A stretch of DNA of 64,000 nt from Bacteroidota bacterium (GCA_016194975.1 JACQAM010000005.1:85266-149265), one strand, 5' to 3'. Shown: positions 7,217 through 55,864, counted from the stretch's first letter. Numbers and translations: made by a program. The notes: generated by a model not told the origin, from the letters alone.

Positions 7217-7678
7217 TCATCTCCTGAAGAGTCGTTGATCGAATTCGAATTTTTCTCTTTTCATAATTCTGATCGGGGAAAATTTCCGATGATAAGGATT
7301 CAATAAAAAATTGAAATCGCCAGGCACAACGGCAGAAGGAACTTTAAACACAGCATATTTATTTTCCCTGATGAATTTATTCCCGATCAACTGCGTAGAT
7401 AAAGAATGTGGAAATTTTCTCCAGTCCTCAGGTAGATCTTTTTCGGAAAGGACTTTTATTTTTATTTGCAAAGGGATTTTTATCGTGACAATTTCATAGT
7501 CGGCCGGTACAATTCCCAATGGAAGATGAACCGCAAGTTCAGCGGTACAAAGTGATCGCGATTCGGAAGTGTAAACCATTTTTACGCCCCTGCTGTTCCA
7601 TCTCCCACCGGTTTTTTCAGCGCCTGTTCCGGAAAGAAAATCAGGATAACGATTACTGCCCAGCCGGAAAACAATCAT
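7217..7678 (-). CDS. RES-domain toxin (putative NAD+-degrading) of an Xre-RES type II toxin-antitoxin pair
   Basis: GGRWNSRGVKMVYTSESRSLCTAELAVH carries the R..E..S signature. It is 153 aa and overlaps the upstream antitoxin by 4 nt. Confidence 0.75.
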   Translation of the reverse strand: MIVFRLGSNRYPDFLSGTGAEKTGGRWNSRGVKMVYTSESRSLCTAELAVHLPLGIVPADYEIVTIKIPLQIKIKVLSEKDLPEDWRKFPHSLSTQLIGNKFIRENKYAVFKVPSAVVPGDFNFLLNPYHRKFSPIRIMKREKFEFDQRLFRR

Positions 7679-8094
7679 GCGAGTACGCCGTGTTCAATGC
7701 GCGAGAGTTCGTCTTTGATGAGGCTTATACCCACAGAACTTCCAAGTAAAGAGCGCGGAGATTTACCGCCAAGTGAAATATTAGCTGAACTCAGCCAGGT
7801 AAAATAATTTTCCTCGCTACCGAACACCCGCACGCCTTTATTGAAAAGCAATACAAGTTCCAGGATGCGTTCTGAATGCAATGGATCGAATTTGAGTTTG
7901 TATTTACGGTAACGGTGAAGCGTTCTTTCTGAAAGATGGAGAAAACCTGCCCAATCCTCTACGGAAAGCGGGATACGATGCGTGATCTGGTTGAAGATTC
8001 CATAGGTGATGCCCTGCTCAGCAAAGGTCATCAGGTTTTCCTGACTGAATGATTCGAGATCAGGAATTGAATAGGGCTTGGGTTTCTTTTTCAT
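7675..8094 (-). CDS. Xre/MbcA/ParS-type antitoxin (DUF2384-like) partner of the RES toxin
   Basis: 139 aa. The conserved C-terminal block GKSPRSLLGSSVGISLIKDELSRIEHGV is typical of RES-associated antitoxins. It is translationally coupled to the toxin. Confidence 0.75.
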   Translation of the reverse strand: MKKKPKPYSIPDLESFSQENLMTFAEQGITYGIFNQITHRIPLSVEDWAGFLHLSERTLHRYRKYKLKFDPLHSERILELVLLFNKGVRVFGSEENYFTWLSSANISLGGKSPRSLLGSSVGISLIKDELSRIEHGVLA

Positions 8095-8226: not shown

Positions 8227-9477
8227 TTATTCTCTTACCATCTTCCCCCTGTACACCCTCCCGTTAGCCCATATCTCTGCAAAATATATTCCGGCCTCCT
8301 CTCCCCTCAAATCAATTTCAATAACTGAAGTATCCACGGAAATATTTTTTATTTGCTCCCCAAGAGAATTGTAGATCACAATTGTTGTTTCCCCATTTGT
8401 ATTCCTGTGTATGAAAAATTTTCCATCGGAAGGATTAGGATAAATTTCAAATCCTGAATTTTCATTCTGATAACTATCGGGATTGAATTGTGTAAGTCCC
8501 GTTGAGACGGGATTTGTTTCCGCCAACCAGATCGTCATATTCATAATCAGCAATTGATGATTTCCTGCGGCATCAGAAAAATAGCCATTATATAAAACAT
8601 CATTCACGTCGCCTGTTCCATCGTCACACGGTGAACTGTCTCCTATTGCTGCAAATTTTCCATTGCCGAATCTTCCGTACAGCGCCATTACATTCGTTGT
8701 TCCTGTTGTAGATGAAGAAGTTTTGTAGATCACACCTTTCGTTGTTGCATTGTCAGAATTGTTGATCGTAAAAGTTGTTCCGTTCGACCACTGCGCTTCT
8801 GTTACATTTCCCATAGGTCCGTGCAGAATGGAATCGCCGGGAAGAGTGGCGGCATTTGTTGTGATCTGCGAAAAATTCTGGAGATCGACACTGAATCCGA
8901 ATGGATCATTCTGAACAGAATTATTGGTAAAAAGATCATTCCATATTCCGGGAGAATCCCATCCGTCGTTGTTGCGATCAGAAACTGTGTGATCAGAAAT
9001 AATGAAAAGCCCTCCTCCATTCTGAACAAAATTCAGTAGCGCAGTTTTTTCTGAAGAACTGAAAACAATATTCGGTTCGCAGACGATGAACACTTTGTAA
9101 TTCGAAAGATCCTGCGCATTGGAAGAATTTCCGTAAGAAATCGCTCCATTGTAAGGAAGTGTTTCCACCACGTAACTATGATTTGCACAATCGACTCCCC
9201 ACGCAGACAGTGATCCGTTCCAGTAAGTCTCGGGTGTGCTCGCGTTTATGCCCGACTGCGCAGGTGTAGGAATAGTTTGCGGATTCGATTCGTTTCCCTG
9301 TCCAACTACTGCGGGCCCGCTGCTGAAACCGATGTTGTGCGTATCAGCATCCACTACCCAATCGGCATTACCGGCCATTTCTGCTTTCGTTGCATCGAAA
9401 AGAATTCTTACTGCCGCTTGTGAAAATACAGAACCGTAAAGCAGTGTGAATACAAGAAAGAAAAAATATTTTTTCAT
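8227..9477 (-). CDS. Secreted hypothetical protein with type-A T9SS C-terminal sorting domain
   Basis: Signal peptide plus C-terminal FEIYPNPSDGKFFI...IYFAEI...GKMVRE T9SS CTD. Confidence 0.6.
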   Translation of the reverse strand: MKKYFFFLVFTLLYGSVFSQAAVRILFDATKAEMAGNADWVVDADTHNIGFSSGPAVVGQGNESNPQTIPTPAQSGINASTPETYWNGSLSAWGVDCANHSYVVETLPYNGAISYGNSSNAQDLSNYKVFIVCEPNIVFSSSEKTALLNFVQNGGGLFIISDHTVSDRNNDGWDSPGIWNDLFTNNSVQNDPFGFSVDLQNFSQITTNAATLPGDSILHGPMGNVTEAQWSNGTTFTINNSDNATTKGVIYKTSSSTTGTTNVMALYGRFGNGKFAAIGDSSPCDDGTGDVNDVLYNGYFSDAAGNHQLLIMNMTIWLAETNPVSTGLTQFNPDSYQNENSGFEIYPNPSDGKFFIHRNTNGETTIVIYNSLGEQIKNISVDTSVIEIDLRGEEAGIYFAEIWANGRVYRGKMVRE

Positions 9478-9480
9478 TGC

Positions 9481-11298
9481 TCAGCGTTGAATAATGAATT
9501 TTCCGTTTGCAATGTTACCTTCTTTTTCTTCGGCAATGAAATACATTCCATCCGGTAAAGACGCAACACCGGCGCTGAAAATTTCATCCGCACCATTCAT
9601 CTCCATCACCAGTTGGCCGTTGGTATCATAAATTCTGATCTTCACGTTTCCCCCGAAAATATTTTTCACATTTATCATTTCTGAAGCCGGCACTGGAAAA
9701 ACCGAAATTGAATTCAGGTCAATGGGTGCAGAAGAAAGACTGGTTGTAATACAAGACAACCCTAAACTTCCGCCAAGATCAGAAAAATTCATGTTGAATG
9801 ACTGGTAATATTCATTGGCAATAAGTACGCTGTGCACGATCACCGTATTCTCATCATTCTTCGTATCGGCAGTCGCTGTCCAGTTGTGCGAACCGGTAAG
9901 CACCAGCGGATCGGAAGTGGAATCACATTCATCAACGATGAGAAATTTATTATGATAAAGAAAAGTTGCATTGGAATAAACTTCAAGCATACTGCCAAGC
10001 CCGGAATTCAGAATCGGGTAAGCAGAGTATGGTGTACTGTTTTGATCGATGATCCCGGCAGTGTAAACACCGGCCGACTGCCGCGCAACAATTGCATTGG
10101 CATCACTCGATTCAGTGAAAGTATAAACACCGAAGAAAAGAGAATTGTTCGCAGAATTGATCTTATTCAGGATCTGGTTATTCACTCCATCTGAAGGACT
10201 GAAATATAATTCGACTGTTCTTGTTCCAATTGTAAATGTATGCGGCGTATTATCGGTTTTGAAAGGGCCGAACCTGGAATTCGTGGTATTTGCAACCATC
10301 CCGGTGTCGCCCCACATTTCATTGAATTCAGTGGTGTATGCCGTAGCAAGATTTTTATCACGAATGATAATGACATTATTGTAATCGGAATTGATCTGCT
10401 GGTCATCCCAGTTGGTAGAGCCCGTCCAAACGATCGGGTCATCCACGTTGGAAGAATGCGCATCCACGATCATGAATTTATTATGCATGATATTATAAGA
10501 TGCGCTGGTAGGACTTCCCAATTTAGGAATACCTGAATTCAGCAAAGAGAGTCCGCTGTTGGAAGAACTTCCATTGTATATCCAACGGATCTTCACACCA
10601 CGAGCGTAAGCATTATTGATCGCCGTTGCAATATTTGAAATGGAAGCAGTTTGAATATAATTATACACAGCTATGTCGAGTGTGAATTTTGCGCGATTGA
10701 TATATGCAATTAAAGTATCGTCGATCGTTTGATTCAGGTAAACAGCATTTATTCCGGAAGAAACAGCAGTATTCACCGGGTGATTGAAATAAACAGTGAT
10801 CGTTCCCGTTGAATTTGAAACAACAGAATTCTGTAGCAAACGATAATCATCGAAAGAAACATTTCCCGCCGATTTTACATACGTAAAGCGAAGGTGATGT
10901 GCCGCGCTGCTCACATGATATTTAAATACAGTTCCGGTAGTTGGGATCGGCTGCACTTTGCCAATAGTATCCCACGCAAGACTGTCGGGGCTTTCAAGAC
11001 ACACCAGCATGCTCACTGCATCGGTTGACAAACCTTTCACCCAGAATTGAACGGTGTCTGCATTTGAGAATGGAGGCGTGTTGATCGTTGCGAGATTCAC
11101 TCCGAACTTGTAGGCGTTCGGGCCGCTTGTTCCACAACTTGCAACAGAAGTATAATTTCCCTGGTAAGAAAAATTCCATCCGGCCGGAACCGTTGCAACA
11201 GTACCCAGATAATTCGTGAAATCTTCCTGCTCAAGAATGAGCTGCGAAAACATTCCACAGGGAAATAACAAAAGGAAAAAAATAAATAGCCTGCTCAT
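9481..11298 (-). CDS. Phospholipase-D-superfamily protein (two HxK(x4)D motifs) with T9SS C-terminal domain
   Basis: HNKFMIVD...GSTNWD and HNKFLIVD...GSHNWT HKD motifs. C-terminal SVFPVPASE...MYFIAE sorting domain. Confidence 0.7.
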   Translation of the reverse strand: MSRLFIFFLLLFPCGMFSQLILEQEDFTNYLGTVATVPAGWNFSYQGNYTSVASCGTSGPNAYKFGVNLATINTPPFSNADTVQFWVKGLSTDAVSMLVCLESPDSLAWDTIGKVQPIPTTGTVFKYHVSSAAHHLRFTYVKSAGNVSFDDYRLLQNSVVSNSTGTITVYFNHPVNTAVSSGINAVYLNQTIDDTLIAYINRAKFTLDIAVYNYIQTASISNIATAINNAYARGVKIRWIYNGSSSNSGLSLLNSGIPKLGSPTSASYNIMHNKFMIVDAHSSNVDDPIVWTGSTNWDDQQINSDYNNVIIIRDKNLATAYTTEFNEMWGDTGMVANTTNSRFGPFKTDNTPHTFTIGTRTVELYFSPSDGVNNQILNKINSANNSLFFGVYTFTESSDANAIVARQSAGVYTAGIIDQNSTPYSAYPILNSGLGSMLEVYSNATFLYHNKFLIVDECDSTSDPLVLTGSHNWTATADTKNDENTVIVHSVLIANEYYQSFNMNFSDLGGSLGLSCITTSLSSAPIDLNSISVFPVPASEMINVKNIFGGNVKIRIYDTNGQLVMEMNGADEIFSAGVASLPDGMYFIAEEKEGNIANGKFIIQR

Positions 11299-11495: not shown

Positions 11496-12236
11496 ATGAT
11501 GCGTCTCGTAGTGCCTGTTTATGTTCACACTATTTTTGAAGTTGCTGCTTTCGTGACTGGTTTCCGTTATTATTTATACCTCAGAAAAAAATCCATCGAT
11601 CCGGTCAAAGAAACAAATCGTATATGGATAATTGTTGGTGCAACCGCCGGCGCTCTTCTTGGTTCGAGAATACTTGGAGCACTTGAGGATCCTTCATGGA
11701 TGGCGCACCCGGGCTGGAAAAATATTTTCATTGCATTCAACAACAAAACAATTGTCGGTGGATTATTCGGTGGCACATTGGCGGTGGAGTTGACCAAAAT
11801 AATTCTCGGAGAAAAAAAACGTTCCGGCGACCTTTTCGTTTTCCCGATCCTGCTTGCACTTATCATTGGACGGATCGGGTGTTTGCTTACTGCACTCAAC
11901 GATCATACGGCAGGAATTTCTACTACGCTGCCATGGGGAATTGATTATGGCGACGGGATTTCCCGTCATCCTCTTCCCTTTTATGAAATTATTTTTCTCT
12001 CCGTAACATTTTTTGTGTTGCGGAAAATAAATGAAAAGTACACCTTAGCGAATGGTTCTCTTTTCCAACTGATGATGGTTGCTTATTTTATTTTTAGGTT
12101 CTTCAATGAATACTTGAAGGATGATCATTTGTATCCGTGGAAACTCAGCACCATTCAAACGGCTTGTGTACTCGGACTTTTGTATTATGCGAAAGTTTTC
12201 ATCCGGCCCGGACATCTGCTGAAACAATATGCCTGA
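11496..12236 (+). CDS. Prolipoprotein diacylglyceryl transferase (Lgt)-like membrane protein, a paralog of the bona fide lgt at 54650
   Basis: Multi-pass membrane protein. Lgt-like blocks GGLFGG, IGRIGCLL and HPLPFYE are present. Confidence 0.6.
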   Translation: MMRLVVPVYVHTIFEVAAFVTGFRYYLYLRKKSIDPVKETNRIWIIVGATAGALLGSRILGALEDPSWMAHPGWKNIFIAFNNKTIVGGLFGGTLAVELTKIILGEKKRSGDLFVFPILLALIIGRIGCLLTALNDHTAGISTTLPWGIDYGDGISRHPLPFYEIIFLSVTFFVLRKINEKYTLANGSLFQLMMVAYFIFRFFNEYLKDDHLYPWKLSTIQTACVLGLLYYAKVFIRPGHLLKQYA

Positions 12237-13632
12237 AAGACCTTATACTTATTTCGATTTCACGCTCAGTCTCTGCCCGCATTGCCTGAAACGTGTTGAT
12301 GCAAAAATAGTTTTCGAAGAGGAACTTGTTTTCATGCTGAAGCGATGCCCGGAACACGGGCACCAGAAAGTTTTAATTGCAACAGAAAAAGAATATTACC
12401 GGCTGGCGAGAAATTATATGAAACCATCTGAAATGCCTCTTGTGTTCAACACGCGCACGCATTACGGATGCCCGTACGATTGCGGATTGTGTCCCGATCA
12501 TGAACAGCATTCCTGTCTTACGCTGGTGGAAATCACAGATCGTTGCAATCTCACTTGCCCAACGTGTTACTCAGAATCATCGCCGCATCACGGACGTCAT
12601 CGTTCGCTTGAAGAAGTGGAAAAGATGTTTGATGCGGTTGTACGCAATGAAGGACGACCCGACATCATCCAGATCAGCGGAGGAGAACCGACCATTCATC
12701 CGCAGTTTTTCGAAATTCTCGATATGGCGAAAACAAAACCGGTCCGTCATCTCATGTTGAACACGAATGGAATCCGCATTGCGAAAGAAGAAGAATTTGT
12801 AAAACGCCTTGCGGAATACATGCCCGATTTTGAAATTTATCTTCAATTCGATTCTTTTCGCCCTGATGTATTGAAAAAATTGCGCGGAAAAGACCTGACG
12901 GATGTGCGAACAAAAGCGCTGGAGCATCTCAACAAATACGATCTGAATACAACACTCGTGGTCACTCTTGAAAAAGGATTGAACATGGATGAGATCGGGA
13001 AGATCATTGAATTTGCTATTGAGCAGCCCTGTGTTCGCGGTGTGACTTTTCAGCCCACGCAAATTGCCGGCCGGTTGGAAAATTTCGATCCGGAAAAAAA
13101 CCGCACGACGCTGACGGAAGTGAGAAGAGAAATATTGAATCAATCGGAAATTTTTTCTGAAAAAGATCTTATTCCTGTCCCGTGCAATCCCGATGCGCTC
13201 GCAATGGGCTACGCGCTGAAGATGGATGGTAATATTTTTCCATTGACACGATTCATTGATCCCGATCAATTGCTGGATAATTCGCAAAACACGATCGTGT
13301 ATGAGCAGGACGAAAAATTACATGAACATGTTCTCCGTCTTTTCAGCACTGCTCATTCTCCGTCTTCTGCAACTGAAGAATTGAAATCGCTGCTCTGTTG
13401 CCTCCCGCAGATCAAAGCGCCGGGGCTGACCTACAAAAATTTATTCCGCGTTATTATCATGCAGTTCATTGATGCGTGGAATTTCGATGTACGTGCAATT
13501 AAAAAATCATGTGTGCACATTGTGAATGGCGAAGGAAAAATAATTCCGTTCGAAACGATGAATCTTTTTTATCGTGAGCAACACAAACATAAACTCGATG
13601 AATTACGGAACGCAACAACCGCCGTCACCTGA
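12229..13632 (+). CDS. Radical SAM protein with N-terminal Cys-rich (zinc-ribbon-like) region
   Basis: CNLTCPTCY (CxxxCxxC) radical-SAM cluster. It is preceded by CPHC...CPEHG and CPYDCGLCPDH Cys clusters. The start overlaps the stop of the Lgt-like gene. Confidence 0.7.
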   Translation: MPERPYTYFDFTLSLCPHCLKRVDAKIVFEEELVFMLKRCPEHGHQKVLIATEKEYYRLARNYMKPSEMPLVFNTRTHYGCPYDCGLCPDHEQHSCLTLVEITDRCNLTCPTCYSESSPHHGRHRSLEEVEKMFDAVVRNEGRPDIIQISGGEPTIHPQFFEILDMAKTKPVRHLMLNTNGIRIAKEEEFVKRLAEYMPDFEIYLQFDSFRPDVLKKLRGKDLTDVRTKALEHLNKYDLNTTLVVTLEKGLNMDEIGKIIEFAIEQPCVRGVTFQPTQIAGRLENFDPEKNRTTLTEVRREILNQSEIFSEKDLIPVPCNPDALAMGYALKMDGNIFPLTRFIDPDQLLDNSQNTIVYEQDEKLHEHVLRLFSTAHSPSSATEELKSLLCCLPQIKAPGLTYKNLFRVIIMQFIDAWNFDVRAIKKSCVHIVNGEGKIIPFETMNLFYREQHKHKLDELRNATTAVT

Positions 13633-13918
13633 AAATAAAAGCAAGACGATCTGGAAAGTCCTGCGTGTTCAATTGACGATCTTTGCCGCGTACCAGATTT
13701 TAATTGGATTTCTTTCCATCGGCTCCGGCACCTACGATATTTTATTCAAAGACATGGCTCCCCTGCTTATTCACGAATTGGTTTTACTCATTCTTATGAT
13801 CCTCAGTTTTTCGAAAAAACAGGAAGGCGCCGGATACGGTTATCTCCTCTCCCTCATCATTGTAATGGTTGTAGGATTTGGTTCATGCTGTTATTTGAGC
13901 AGCGTATTAAGTCAATGA
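13598..13918 (+). CDS. Small integral membrane protein (paralog A; start uncertain)
   Basis: Hydrophobic helices. It is a paralog of the following ORF, sharing the ...LIIGxGSC... block. Confidence 0.4.
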   Translation: MNYGTQQPPSPENKSKTIWKVLRVQLTIFAAYQILIGFLSIGSGTYDILFKDMAPLLIHELVLLILMILSFSKKQEGAGYGYLLSLIIVMVVGFGSCCYLSSVLSQ

Positions 13919-13939
13919 GGAATGTCCTAAATTCACATA

Positions 13940-14350
13940 ATGAAAAGGACAACATTTAAAATTCTTATTTCGCAACTCGGGATCTTCCTCGGTTACTACC
14001 TGCTTTTTTACCGGCTGCACTTATCCTTCCTTCTGATCTTTGCATTTGCACTTCACATCAGCGTTTTATTTTTTTTATCGATCAGAAACTGGAAAAAGAA
14101 AAATGAAGCAAGAGCATTCGGTTTTATGATCCCGCTACTACTCGTACTTATCATTGGTGCCGGAAGCTGCGAAGGAATGTTTGCGGAAATGACCAATGGT
14201 GTGGCAGAAAATATTTCAGATGGAATATTTGAACACCGTGCGCATAAGAATGAAAAAATATACTTCAAGCACTTTTCGAAAAAAGAAAAACGAAAAATGA
14301 AAGAAGACTCCACGCGCATTGCAGATTCCATTGCGCGCTCGCAGGTGTGA
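13940..14350 (+). CDS. Small integral membrane protein (paralog B) with basic C-terminal tail
   Basis: Similar to the preceding ORF (TxxKxLxxQLxIF...KKxEAxxxGxxxxLLxVxIxGxGSC). Confidence 0.4.
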   Translation: MKRTTFKILISQLGIFLGYYLLFYRLHLSFLLIFAFALHISVLFFLSIRNWKKKNEARAFGFMIPLLLVLIIGAGSCEGMFAEMTNGVAENISDGIFEHRAHKNEKIYFKHFSKKEKRKMKEDSTRIADSIARSQV

Positions 14351-54649: not shown

Positions 54650-55864
54650 ATGTATCCAACCATCTACGACGCAGTAAAAGATCTCTTTCACATCAGCATT
54701 CCTTTCCTGAAATTATTGCAGAGCTTCGGATTTTTTGTAGCGATCGCATTTTTACTCTGCGCCTGGGTATTTGCAAAAGAACTTCACCGCAAAGAACTCC
54801 TCGGTTTACTCCAACCTACTTTCCGCAAAGTGATGATCGGTGTGAAAGCAACACAGGGTGAAATTGCCCTGCAATTCTTTTTTGGATTTCTCATTGGCTG
54901 GAAACTCATCTCCATTCCGTTCACAAAAGATTTTTCGGCCGATCCGCGCGCTTTTATGCTTTCCATGAAAGGAAATATTTTCATCGGGCTTGCCGGCGGC
55001 GCTGCACTTGCATTTCTCAAATGGAAAATGAGCGAAAAGAAGAAACTTGCTGAACCCATCGAACAGGAAGAAAAAGTAAGCGCGGCCGATCACGTAGGAA
55101 ATATGACCTTGCTCGCTGCGGGATTCGGTTTTCTTGGCGCAAAAATTTTCCACATCCTCGAAAATTTCAAAGAATTTCTCAGCGATCCGTCAAAAATGTT
55201 TTTCTCTTTCAGCGGGCTCACCATGTACGGCGGACTCATTCTCGGCGGAGCAGCCGTTCTTGTTTACGCGCACAAAAAAGGTTTCGGAATTTTTCACGTG
55301 ATGGATGCATGCGCGCCGGGGCTCATGCTCGCGTACGGAGTCGGCCGTCTCGGTTGCCACGTTTCCGGCGATGGCGATTGGGGAATCGTGAATAAATCCC
55401 CGCAACCGTCGTGGTTGCATTTTCTTCCGAAGTGGATCTGGGCTTACGATTATCCGAATAATGTAAATGGCGTTTTCAATCCTTACACCGATGAACATTC
55501 GAAAGAATACATGATGGCGCAGGTGCAGGGAATGCTTTCCGGAAATGAAGTCCGGTTGGTGGATCCTGTTTTTCCAACTCCGTTTTACGAAGCTTTCATC
55601 TGCATTTTACTTTTCGGAATATTCTGGATGTTCCGGAAAAAATTCTCTTCACCCGGTTTACTCTTCAGTGTTTATCTTATTGCAAACGGAGTGGAACGAT
55701 TTTTCATTGAGCTCATCCGCGTAAACACAACTTTATTTCACATCGGTAGTTTCCGGATGACGCAGGCAGAATTAATTGCGATCGTTCTGATACTGTTGGG
55801 TAGTTATGGTGTTTACTGGACGAAGAAAAAAAATAAAAACATCCCTCCTCTTCCGGCAACATGA
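54650..55864 (+). CDS. lgt: Prolipoprotein diacylglyceryl transferase (long Bacteroidota form)
   Basis: Lgt signature G.GRLGC..SGDGDWG and multiple TM helices. Confidence 0.75.
   Translation: MYPTIYDAVKDLFHISIPFLKLLQSFGFFVAIAFLLCAWVFAKELHRKELLGLLQPTFRKVMIGVKATQGEIALQFFFGFLIGWKLISIPFTKDFSADPRAFMLSMKGNIFIGLAGGAALAFLKWKMSEKKKLAEPIEQEEKVSAADHVGNMTLLAAGFGFLGAKIFHILENFKEFLSDPSKMFFSFSGLTMYGGLILGGAAVLVYAHKKGFGIFHVMDACAPGLMLAYGVGRLGCHVSGDGDWGIVNKSPQPSWLHFLPKWIWAYDYPNNVNGVFNPYTDEHSKEYMMAQVQGMLSGNEVRLVDPVFPTPFYEAFICILLFGIFWMFRKKFSSPGLLFSVYLIANGVERFFIELIRVNTTLFHIGSFRMTQAELIAIVLILLGSYGVYWTKKKNKNIPPLPAT

Follow-up and report, generated by a model that had tools for sequence, protein, structure and literature searches.

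A conserved bacterial gene cassette pairing an Lgt-family paralog and a Tes-like radical SAM enzyme with small cysteine-bearing membrane proteins

Within a 64,000-nucleotide stretch of DNA from a Bacteroidota bacterium (GCA_016194975.1, JACQAM010000005.1:85266-149265), here called the window, positions 11496-14350 carry four co-directional open reading frames (ORFs), all of them present as annotated: a paralog of the diacylglyceryl transferase Lgt, an enzyme of the radical S-adenosylmethionine (SAM) type, from the family that contains the archaeal lipid synthase Tes/GDGT-MAS (GDGT, glycerol dialkyl glycerol tetraether), and two small membrane proteins that we term mini-proteins. These three families are inherited together, apparently coupled in translation and in some cases fused. 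The Lgt-family paralog (11496..12236, plus strand) is 246 aa long, with about seven transmembrane (TM) segments and a minimal periplasmic head, and the radical SAM enzyme (12229..13632, plus strand) is 467 aa long and has no TM segment. Mini-protein 1 (13598..13918, plus strand; 106 aa counted from a conserved ATG) and its paralog mini-protein 2 (13940..14350, plus strand; 136 aa) follow, each with three hydrophobic segments predicted to span the membrane. The first-pass annotation of this DNA had placed an 8-nt overlap between the Lgt-like and radical SAM genes, and direct reading bears it out: at 12229..12236 (plus strand) the string ATGCCTGA holds the TGA stop of the former and the ATG start of the latter in common (junction context ...CAATATGCCTGAAAGA), which suggests translational coupling. 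The same annotation had the first small protein overlapping the radical SAM stop. That overlap stands, but the start at GTG 13574 does not; it has been replaced by ATG 13598 (MNYGTQ...), which is conserved in the orthologous loci L003 and L022, so that the overlap measures 35 nt rather than 59 nt. A scan of the locus for promoters and terminators returned no signal above shuffled expectation.

The 246-aa protein is an Lgt-family paralog with a predicted catalytic core, not Lgt itself. It matches PF01790 over residues 6-231 (E 3.5e-20) and scores under the equivalog cut-offs, with 35.4 bits against 118.9 for TIGR00544 and 37.6 against 334 for NF000778. The window encodes a second, longer Lgt (54650..55864, 404 aa), from which the first-pass annotation had set the paralog apart, rightly so given that the two share 21% identity; the longer protein scores higher than the paralog, at 77.4 bits, and is likewise under the cut-off. 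A search of the PDB with the single paralog sequence found no match and a family profile was required: built from 20 members, it aligns to Escherichia coli Lgt (5AZB) with E 8.5e-12. The same structure is the sole significant PDB fold match of the AlphaFold model (TM-score 0.58), whose mean predicted local distance difference test score (pLDDT) is 91.3. Mapped through the profile alignment to 5AZB, residues R126, C129, H158/P159, E164, Y197, R201, E205 and K208 of the paralog correspond, in that order, to R143, N146, H196/P197, E202, Y235, R239, E243 and R246 of E. coli Lgt. In alignments of 20 and 42 sequences R126, R201 and Y197 are invariant, E205 is mostly E or D, and K208 is at least 90% conserved; H158/P159 and E164 are likewise kept in the family. 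The roles of the E. coli residues, including the catalytic arginine pair R143/R239, come from the structure paper, which also puts the active site on the periplasmic-leaflet side and reports that His103 of the HGGL motif is essential and proposed to bind the acceptor peptide (PMC4728403). Because the equivalog threshold is failed and the HGGL histidine is gone, we file the protein as an Lgt paralog. The exchange of Asn146 for Cys (GRIGC) was considered as a mark specific to the paralog and ruled out, since the 404-aa Lgt of the window reads GRLGC.

By family comparison the 467-aa protein is a Tes-family enzyme, not Tes itself. It joins an HMPTM zinc-ribbon domain (PF23545) to a radical SAM domain (PF04055). 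Its best NCBIfam matches are TrsS (NF045646; 342.8 bits, cut-off 490), aligned end to end (residues 12-449 against positions 3-434 of a 441-position model), and Tes (287.2 bits, cut-off 450), where the best stretch covers residues 12-319 only; its relatives P0121-P0144 likewise fall under the TrsS cut-off. The sequence matches GDGT-MAS (7TOL) with E 1.6e-67 at about 30% identity, and in Foldseek the predicted model lies full-length on 7TOM/7TOL with a TM-score of 0.75 (for 7TOM, E 2e-32 and 0.75/0.70 over 494 columns), the next match being MoaA at 0.39; the model has a pLDDT of 71.9, with low confidence around the metal sites. A Tes-like placement was among those that the first-pass annotation had raised, and the enzyme is thus a Tes/GDGT-MAS homologue rather than a member of a housekeeping family unrelated to lipids.

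Three metal-site motifs in the N-terminal part of this enzyme align with GDGT-MAS: C16-X2-C19...C40-X2-H43 (CX2C-X20-CX2H), C81-X3-C85-X2-C88 followed by His, and the radical SAM cluster motif C106-X3-C110-X2-C113. Two additional cysteine clusters had been called ahead of the last of these; both motifs are there, but by homology to GDGT-MAS the first is a rubredoxin-type mononuclear iron site and only the second is an auxiliary [4Fe-4S] site. In the C-terminal domain, GDGT-MAS reads ...SCMHF...RCCIHY...PFCTYN, whereas the window enzyme reads ...IIMQF...KSCVHI...PFETMN, and of the Tes cysteine pattern (CM...CC...PFC) only C428, aligned with C456, is retained. Residues C319, C390, C391 and C428 are conserved within the clade, the first three not being cysteines of the Tes pattern, and E442, at a GDGT-MAS cysteine position, is an invariant acidic residue in the main clade. 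The failed Tes and TrsS thresholds, together with the absence of Tyr459 and of the Tes C-terminal cysteine pattern, are the reason for filing the enzyme as Tes-family and not as Tes. Loss of the Tes-type C-terminal cysteines was considered as a rule for linkage to Lgt and ruled out, as P0134 keeps CC...PFC and is Lgt-linked with a mini-protein. There was no match to a SPASM domain in Pfam, the maturase matches in NCBIfam were weak (<65 bits) and confined to the radical SAM core (residues about 93-290), and the Pfam and NCBIfam scans detected no recognition domain of the kind that serves RiPPs (ribosomally synthesised, post-translationally modified peptides).

The two mini-proteins had been described as paralogous with common blocks, and they are (BLASTP E 4e-11, 31% identity over 83 aa), the blocks being T..K.L..QL.IF and (V/I)G.GSC; neither matched a Pfam or NCBIfam family. 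Mini-protein 1 ends in ...KKQEGAGYGYLLSLIIVMVVGFGSC-CYLSSVLSQ, its invariant Cys97 being encoded at 13886..13888. The invariant Cys77 of mini-protein 2 lies in ...LLLVLIIGAGSC (codon 14168..14170) and is followed by a 59-aa charged tail; tailed paralogs that resemble mini-protein 2 are found in L003, L002 and L005. Each protein has a basic N-terminus, an acidic first loop and a basic second loop, and this charge distribution predicts an N-in/C-out topology, which would bring the ...(V/I)G-x-G-S-C motif to the end of the third TM segment that faces the periplasm. The predicted side of the cysteine is thus the side of the Lgt active site.

Loci from Bacteroidota and Chlorobiota have one to three tandem mini-proteins with variable tails after the radical SAM gene, and their motif consists of a basic loop, a hydrophobic helix and L(L/V)(I/V)G-x-x-x-C. 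Across 31 sequences the cysteine is present in all 31 and a glycine at -4 in 30, with little else in common; in an alignment of 22 sequences (23% mean identity) G93 and C97 are the only invariant columns. The gammaproteobacterial partner is a different small protein with an equally invariant cysteine (12/12) and an N-terminus like that of a lipoprotein signal: basic, hydrophobic, then G(L/F)x(M/L)S(L/V/A)CGG. The invariant cysteine is predicted to sit where a TM helix ends on the outer side, this being the last helix in Bacteroidota and the first in Gammaproteobacteria, and in some lineages only 2-10 residues follow it. Set beside the lipobox [LVI][ASTVI][GAS]C, the mini-proteins have a similar layout and differ in the -1 residue and in position. 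The lipobox-like cysteine that the first-pass annotation had held out as a possible target is therefore present, as an invariant residue behind a signal-anchor-like helix. A database search with the mini-protein profile gave 15 matches; since its word index handles short hydrophobic proteins poorly, the search was used only for reciprocal synteny, and the database homologues that were looked up lay directly after a radical SAM gene in 4/4 cases.

How far the arrangement is conserved was assessed with one genome per species. The scan returned 34 loci, of which 33 encode true radical SAM relatives (57-87% identity), in Bacteroidota, Chlorobiota, Acidobacteriota (Vicinamibacteria) and Steroidobacteraceae (Gammaproteobacteria), Chitinophagales and Flavobacteriales also being among the carriers. 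One locus breaks off inside the radical SAM gene and was left out, so that 32 were assessable, and 31 of these have, immediately upstream and on the same strand, an Lgt-like gene. The first-pass annotation had staked its proposal on the pair being conserved together in other genomes, as it proves to be, in four phyla and with a natural fusion (P0123). Twelve loci have a junction distance of -8 nt and 7 gammaproteobacterial loci one of -5 nt; elsewhere it ranges from -14 to +43 nt, apart from a value of -404 nt for L022 that is artefactual, the radical SAM alignment there being partial. Two NCBI assemblies that were examined separately, one of Flavisolibacter nicotianae and one a Flavobacteriales metagenome-assembled genome, have the same arrangement. 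When the ORFs of the flanks were clustered, only the Lgt-like, radical SAM and small proteins were common and all other genes differed. Because nothing else in the flanks is common between loci, this indicates a self-contained cassette, and the arrangement is far beyond chance. Cultured aerobes that carry it are Flavisolibacter nicotianae, Ferruginibacter sp. SUN106, Aquimarina rubra, Panacibacter, Chitinophaga sp. Hz27 and Flavilitoribacter nigricans.

Some features of individual loci deserve mention in their own right. The taxon labels of L005, L016, L017 and L027 (Bifidobacterium, Woesearchaeota, Planctomycetales and Conexibacteraceae) sit on cassettes that are Bacteroidota-like or gammaproteobacterial-like; these are probably mis-binned contigs of metagenome-assembled genomes, and the labels are to be taken with care. 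In L002 (2752-3258) and L004-L010 the Lgt-like gene is directly preceded by a further conserved ORF, about 168 aa long, whose N-terminus resembles a signal peptide and which has no Pfam family; ORFs of similar size precede the Lgt-like gene in L038 and L039, and the window has no such ORF. In L021, positions 1-248 are a tandem repeat (YQVPGTK-like units in translation) reaching the end of the contig, where the assembly may have broken.

The two enzymes are physically joined in P0123, a metagenomic protein of 733 aa with 48% identity to the window protein, in which an LGT domain (residues 4-236), a zinc ribbon and a radical SAM domain are naturally fused. E. coli Lgt lies N-out/C-in in the membrane, and the charge pattern of the paralog is compatible with that topology, so that the radical SAM domain of P0123 is predicted to be cytoplasmic. 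Mini-proteins accompany the pair at nearly all related loci, and overall the triad is kept in three gene orders, which include two distant clades at about 41% identity (L044 and L045). In L044 the mini-protein (ending ...VSFGLCAYRF) comes first, followed by the Lgt-like and radical SAM genes, and in L045:502-5408 (Logan SRR11288141 contig) a 98-aa mini-protein (ending ...LLAGVVCY) is followed by the radical SAM and then the Lgt-like gene. After the triad of L045 come an ArsP_1-type permease and a Sulf_transp + ICMT/PEMT fusion protein. The carboxyl group that ICMT enzymes methylate is that of S-lipidated C-terminal cysteines, and an ICMT/PEMT neighbour beside a near-terminal cysteine is suggestive.

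More distant members of the superfamily have other partners. P0129 and P0140 (38-44% identity; PF23545 and PF04055, as in the window enzyme) lack an Lgt-like gene and are followed instead by a methyltransferase of class I (SAM-dependent), and P0135 has neither partner, which indicates that the Lgt linkage is clade-specific and not a property of the whole superfamily. This methyltransferase-linked sister subfamily is seen at loci L042:1263-3438 and L043:4001-6210 and in the methyltransferase fusions P0244 and P0269. Other fusions in the superfamily involve DUF5714 (P0209) and a MobA-like NTP transferase with an HD domain (P0253).

The cassette appears to be undescribed, a three-component system assembled from two known enzyme families and a new family of cysteine mini-proteins. 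Tes couples the terminal carbons of two archaeol phytanyl chains. With Tes/GDGT-MAS (MJ0619; 7TOL, 7TOM) the cassette enzyme shares a four-part architecture of rubredoxin site, auxiliary cluster, radical SAM core and C-terminal domain, as well as being soluble and acting at the membrane; however, the hosts of the cassette are bacteria with ester lipids, and the cassette enzyme is tied to an Lgt paralog and cysteine mini-proteins, as Tes is not. With E. coli Lgt (5AZB) the paralog shares the PF01790 fold, about seven TM segments, the G-R-x-G signature and equivalents of the catalytic network. It differs in its minimal periplasmic head, in having Val, Leu or Met for His103, in being coupled or fused to a radical SAM enzyme and in existing in addition to the lgt at 54650, and its putative acceptors are internal or C-terminal cysteines of polytopic mini-proteins, whereas those of Lgt are N-terminal lipobox signal peptides. 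The best-scoring curated family for the window enzyme, the TrsS radical SAM (seleno)protein (NF045646), is itself uncharacterised and is matched under its cut-off. A functional analogy is offered by Mss of Thermotoga and Thermoanaerobacter, a radical SAM enzyme that couples the fatty-acyl tails of bacterial ester lipids, although it belongs to another radical SAM lineage (those organisms were found to lack Tes homologues), is reported only from anaerobes and has no described Lgt or mini-protein partners. Literature searches that included Lgt paralogs gave no description of an Lgt-radical SAM cassette, with the TrsS description (Haft and Tolstoy 2025) lying outside their coverage, and no paper in which 'diacylglyceryl transferase', GDGT and radical SAM occur together. 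Reviews and primary papers up to 2026 have bacterial Tes homologues as experimentally unverified and mention no Lgt partner.

It is highly probable, in our view, that the three components work jointly, their target being a membrane lipid or a lipid-protein conjugate. As to how, the reading that we prefer, to which we give a probability of roughly 0.45, is that the Lgt paralog S-diacylglycerylates the mini-proteins and that the Tes-like enzyme performs radical chemistry on the acyl tails. The uncharacterised membrane-lipid or lipoprotein modification pathway suggested in the first-pass annotation is supported in silico, with a chemistry that we infer as follows. The Lgt paralog, whose catalytic residues are kept, would bind a glycerophospholipid, probably phosphatidylglycerol, in a pocket formed around Arg126 and Arg201 in the periplasmic leaflet. 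It would then transfer the diacylglyceryl group to the invariant cysteine of the mini-protein, which would act as a non-canonical internal 'lipobox', as the substrate-like features of the mini-proteins suggest. We hypothesize that the mini-proteins are substrate-like rather than stoichiometric subunits because their conservation is minimal and their copy number and post-cysteine tails vary, which is an argument and not a test; and since a basic loop, a hydrophobic helix, small residues and then the cysteine follow one another, the mini-protein would mimic a lipoprotein signal peptide. The change of His103 to Val in the HGGL acceptor motif would fit an altered acceptor specificity.

At the opposite face of the membrane, homology to Tes/GDGT-MAS suggests that the soluble radical SAM enzyme may dock on the cytoplasmic C-terminus of the Lgt paralog. 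There it would abstract a hydrogen from an unactivated acyl-tail carbon of the protein-bound lipid or of the donor phospholipid, most plausibly at an iso-branched terminus resembling a phytanyl end. The new bond might be a C-C bond that couples or macrocyclises the tails, as in Tes, or a C-S bond, and the outcome would be a short lipopeptide or a mini-protein whose lipid anchor is tail-modified or cross-linked. At least some host lineages are rich in iso-C15:0, as in the case of Steroidobacter agariperforans; the correlation with iso-C15:0-rich taxa is only partly documented and serves as a lead. GDGT-MAS takes ester phospholipids and works on their terminal carbons, Tes goes by way of a lipid C-S(cluster) intermediate when it acts on phytanyl termini, and the iso-branched ends of fatty acids have the same structure as phytanyl ends (PMC8941075).

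Several points weigh against this proposal. The mechanism is drawn from sequences and predicted models. The two steps would have to be taken from opposite faces of the membrane, since the cysteine is predicted to be periplasmic and the radical SAM enzyme cytoplasmic. In the Lgt paralog, the His103 position of HGGL is V87 (V, L, M or A across the family), with GGL kept; the weight of this loss is uncertain, because the 404-aa housekeeping Lgt of the window is also without that histidine and reads YGGL. The mini-protein motif departs from the canonical lipobox at -1, where it has Leu, Val or Thr, and three loci (L016, L017 and L029) have no clear mini-protein. The exception to the upstream pairing is L021, where no Lgt-like gene lies in the 248 nt that remain before the contig end. 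In the radical SAM enzyme, C438, C455 and C470 of GDGT-MAS are replaced by I410, S427 and E442. Met439 and Tyr459 are strictly conserved in 1000 archaeal GDGT-MAS homologues; the first is retained as M411, and the second is I431 (I, V or A in the clade). With these three cysteines and Tyr459 missing from the main clade, C-C coupling of the Tes type via a C-terminal cluster is not assured.

The same substitutions bear on an alternative that dispenses with protein lipidation and that we rate as unlikely. Here the Tes-like enzyme would couple or modify ordinary phospholipid tails, for example turning iso-C15 into an iso-diabolic-acid-type product, while the Lgt paralog served as a membrane dock, lipid presenter or head-group remodeller and the mini-proteins as structural or regulatory subunits. 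Bacterial Tes homologues have been proposed as synthases of branched GDGTs or membrane-spanning lipids (PMC8941075), and the literature knows no enzymes that make iso-diabolic acid in the aerobic Acidobacteria. Vicinamibacteria, Chitinophagales, Flavobacteriales and Steroidobacteraceae carry the cassette, at least some of these lineages are rich in iso-C15:0, and the fusion in P0123 would suit a dock or presenter equally well. However, a pathway acting on free lipids leaves unexplained why Gly and Cys should be the sole invariants of divergent mini-proteins present in one to three copies, and why the catalytic network of Lgt is retained. The Tes hallmark Tyr459 and the C-terminal cysteine pattern are not retained, and in the papers searched membrane-spanning lipids of Bacteroidota were not found reported.

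A further alternative, which we think quite improbable, makes the peptide the centre of the radical chemistry. The radical SAM enzyme would modify the mini-protein, for instance by joining its cysteine as a thioether to a lipid or peptide carbon in place of the cluster-sulfur intermediate of Tes, and the Lgt-like protein would be a recognition or holding subunit. Short cysteine-containing precursors beside a radical SAM enzyme are the usual logic of RiPP systems, and Tes does form a lipid C-S(cluster) intermediate. The loss of three C-terminal cysteines, with the invariant E442 at one of them, could also leave a cluster coordination site open. Yet the cysteine is predicted at the periplasmic end of a helix, away from the cytoplasmic Fe-S enzyme, neither a SPASM/twitch nor a RiPP-recognition domain was detected, and the Lgt-linked P0134 retains the Tes-like CC...PFC pattern. 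That a spare housekeeping lgt merely happens to adjoin an unrelated radical SAM gene and spurious small ORFs, as public annotation might imply ('prolipoprotein diacylglyceryl transferase' next to '7,8-dihydro-6-hydroxymethylpterin dimethyltransferase' in JGI, or 'radical SAM protein'), is almost certainly wrong, being contradicted by synteny in four phyla amid varied flanks, the conserved overlapping junction, the natural fusion and the invariant mini-protein motif, while the pterin assignment of MJ0619 has been superseded by the GDGT-MAS work and the hosts are presumably not methanogens.

Other genes elsewhere in the window deserve mention. Divergent from the cassette, at 8227..11298 (minus strand), are two proteins that carry C-terminal sorting domains for type IX secretion, neither of which is conserved beside the cassette elsewhere. 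One of them, a secreted phospholipase-D-like protein with two HKD motifs (9481..11298), was considered as a cassette member and ruled out, since none of the other loci has it. At 7217..8094 (minus strand), the genes of a RES-domain toxin (7217..7678) and of an Xre/MbcA/ParS-type antitoxin (7675..8094) overlap at their stop and start and make up a typical RES-Xre toxin-antitoxin pair. At 30398..34574 (minus strand), in the stretch of lowest GC content in the window (0.356), a 913-aa protein with the eCIS core domain PF13699 is adjoined by an AAA ATPase (33162..34574), probably marking an extracellular contractile injection system locus or effector region.

Branched GDGT lipids are key palaeoclimate proxies, and bacterial Tes homologues, whose function has never been verified, are in use as marker genes for their producers. 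A large and widespread Tes-like clade locked to an Lgt paralog and cysteine mini-proteins changes how such marker matches are to be read. Because cultured aerobes carry the cassette, genetics, lipidomics and top-down mass spectrometry are feasible now. If the Lgt paralog and the Tes-like enzyme do work on the mini-proteins as proposed, Lgt chemistry would no longer be limited to the classical N-terminal lipobox but would take in dedicated polytopic mini-proteins, and the cassette would contain the first lipid-tail radical SAM enzyme that works with a lipid transferase, fused to it in one lineage. At its boldest, in a form that we put forward tentatively and hold to be doubtful, the proposal describes a hitherto unknown kind of protein lipidation, a 'ribosomally templated lipid' in which a diacylglyceryl group on an internal or near-C-terminal cysteine has its tails welded or cyclised by a radical SAM enzyme. 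If this were true, cleavage could leave a tiny lipopeptide as the product, given the few residues that follow the cysteine in some lineages; many of the bacterial 'Tes homologues' counted as branched GDGT markers would do something else; and aerobic bacteria would possess macrocyclic or bridged lipids anchored to a protein or peptide.

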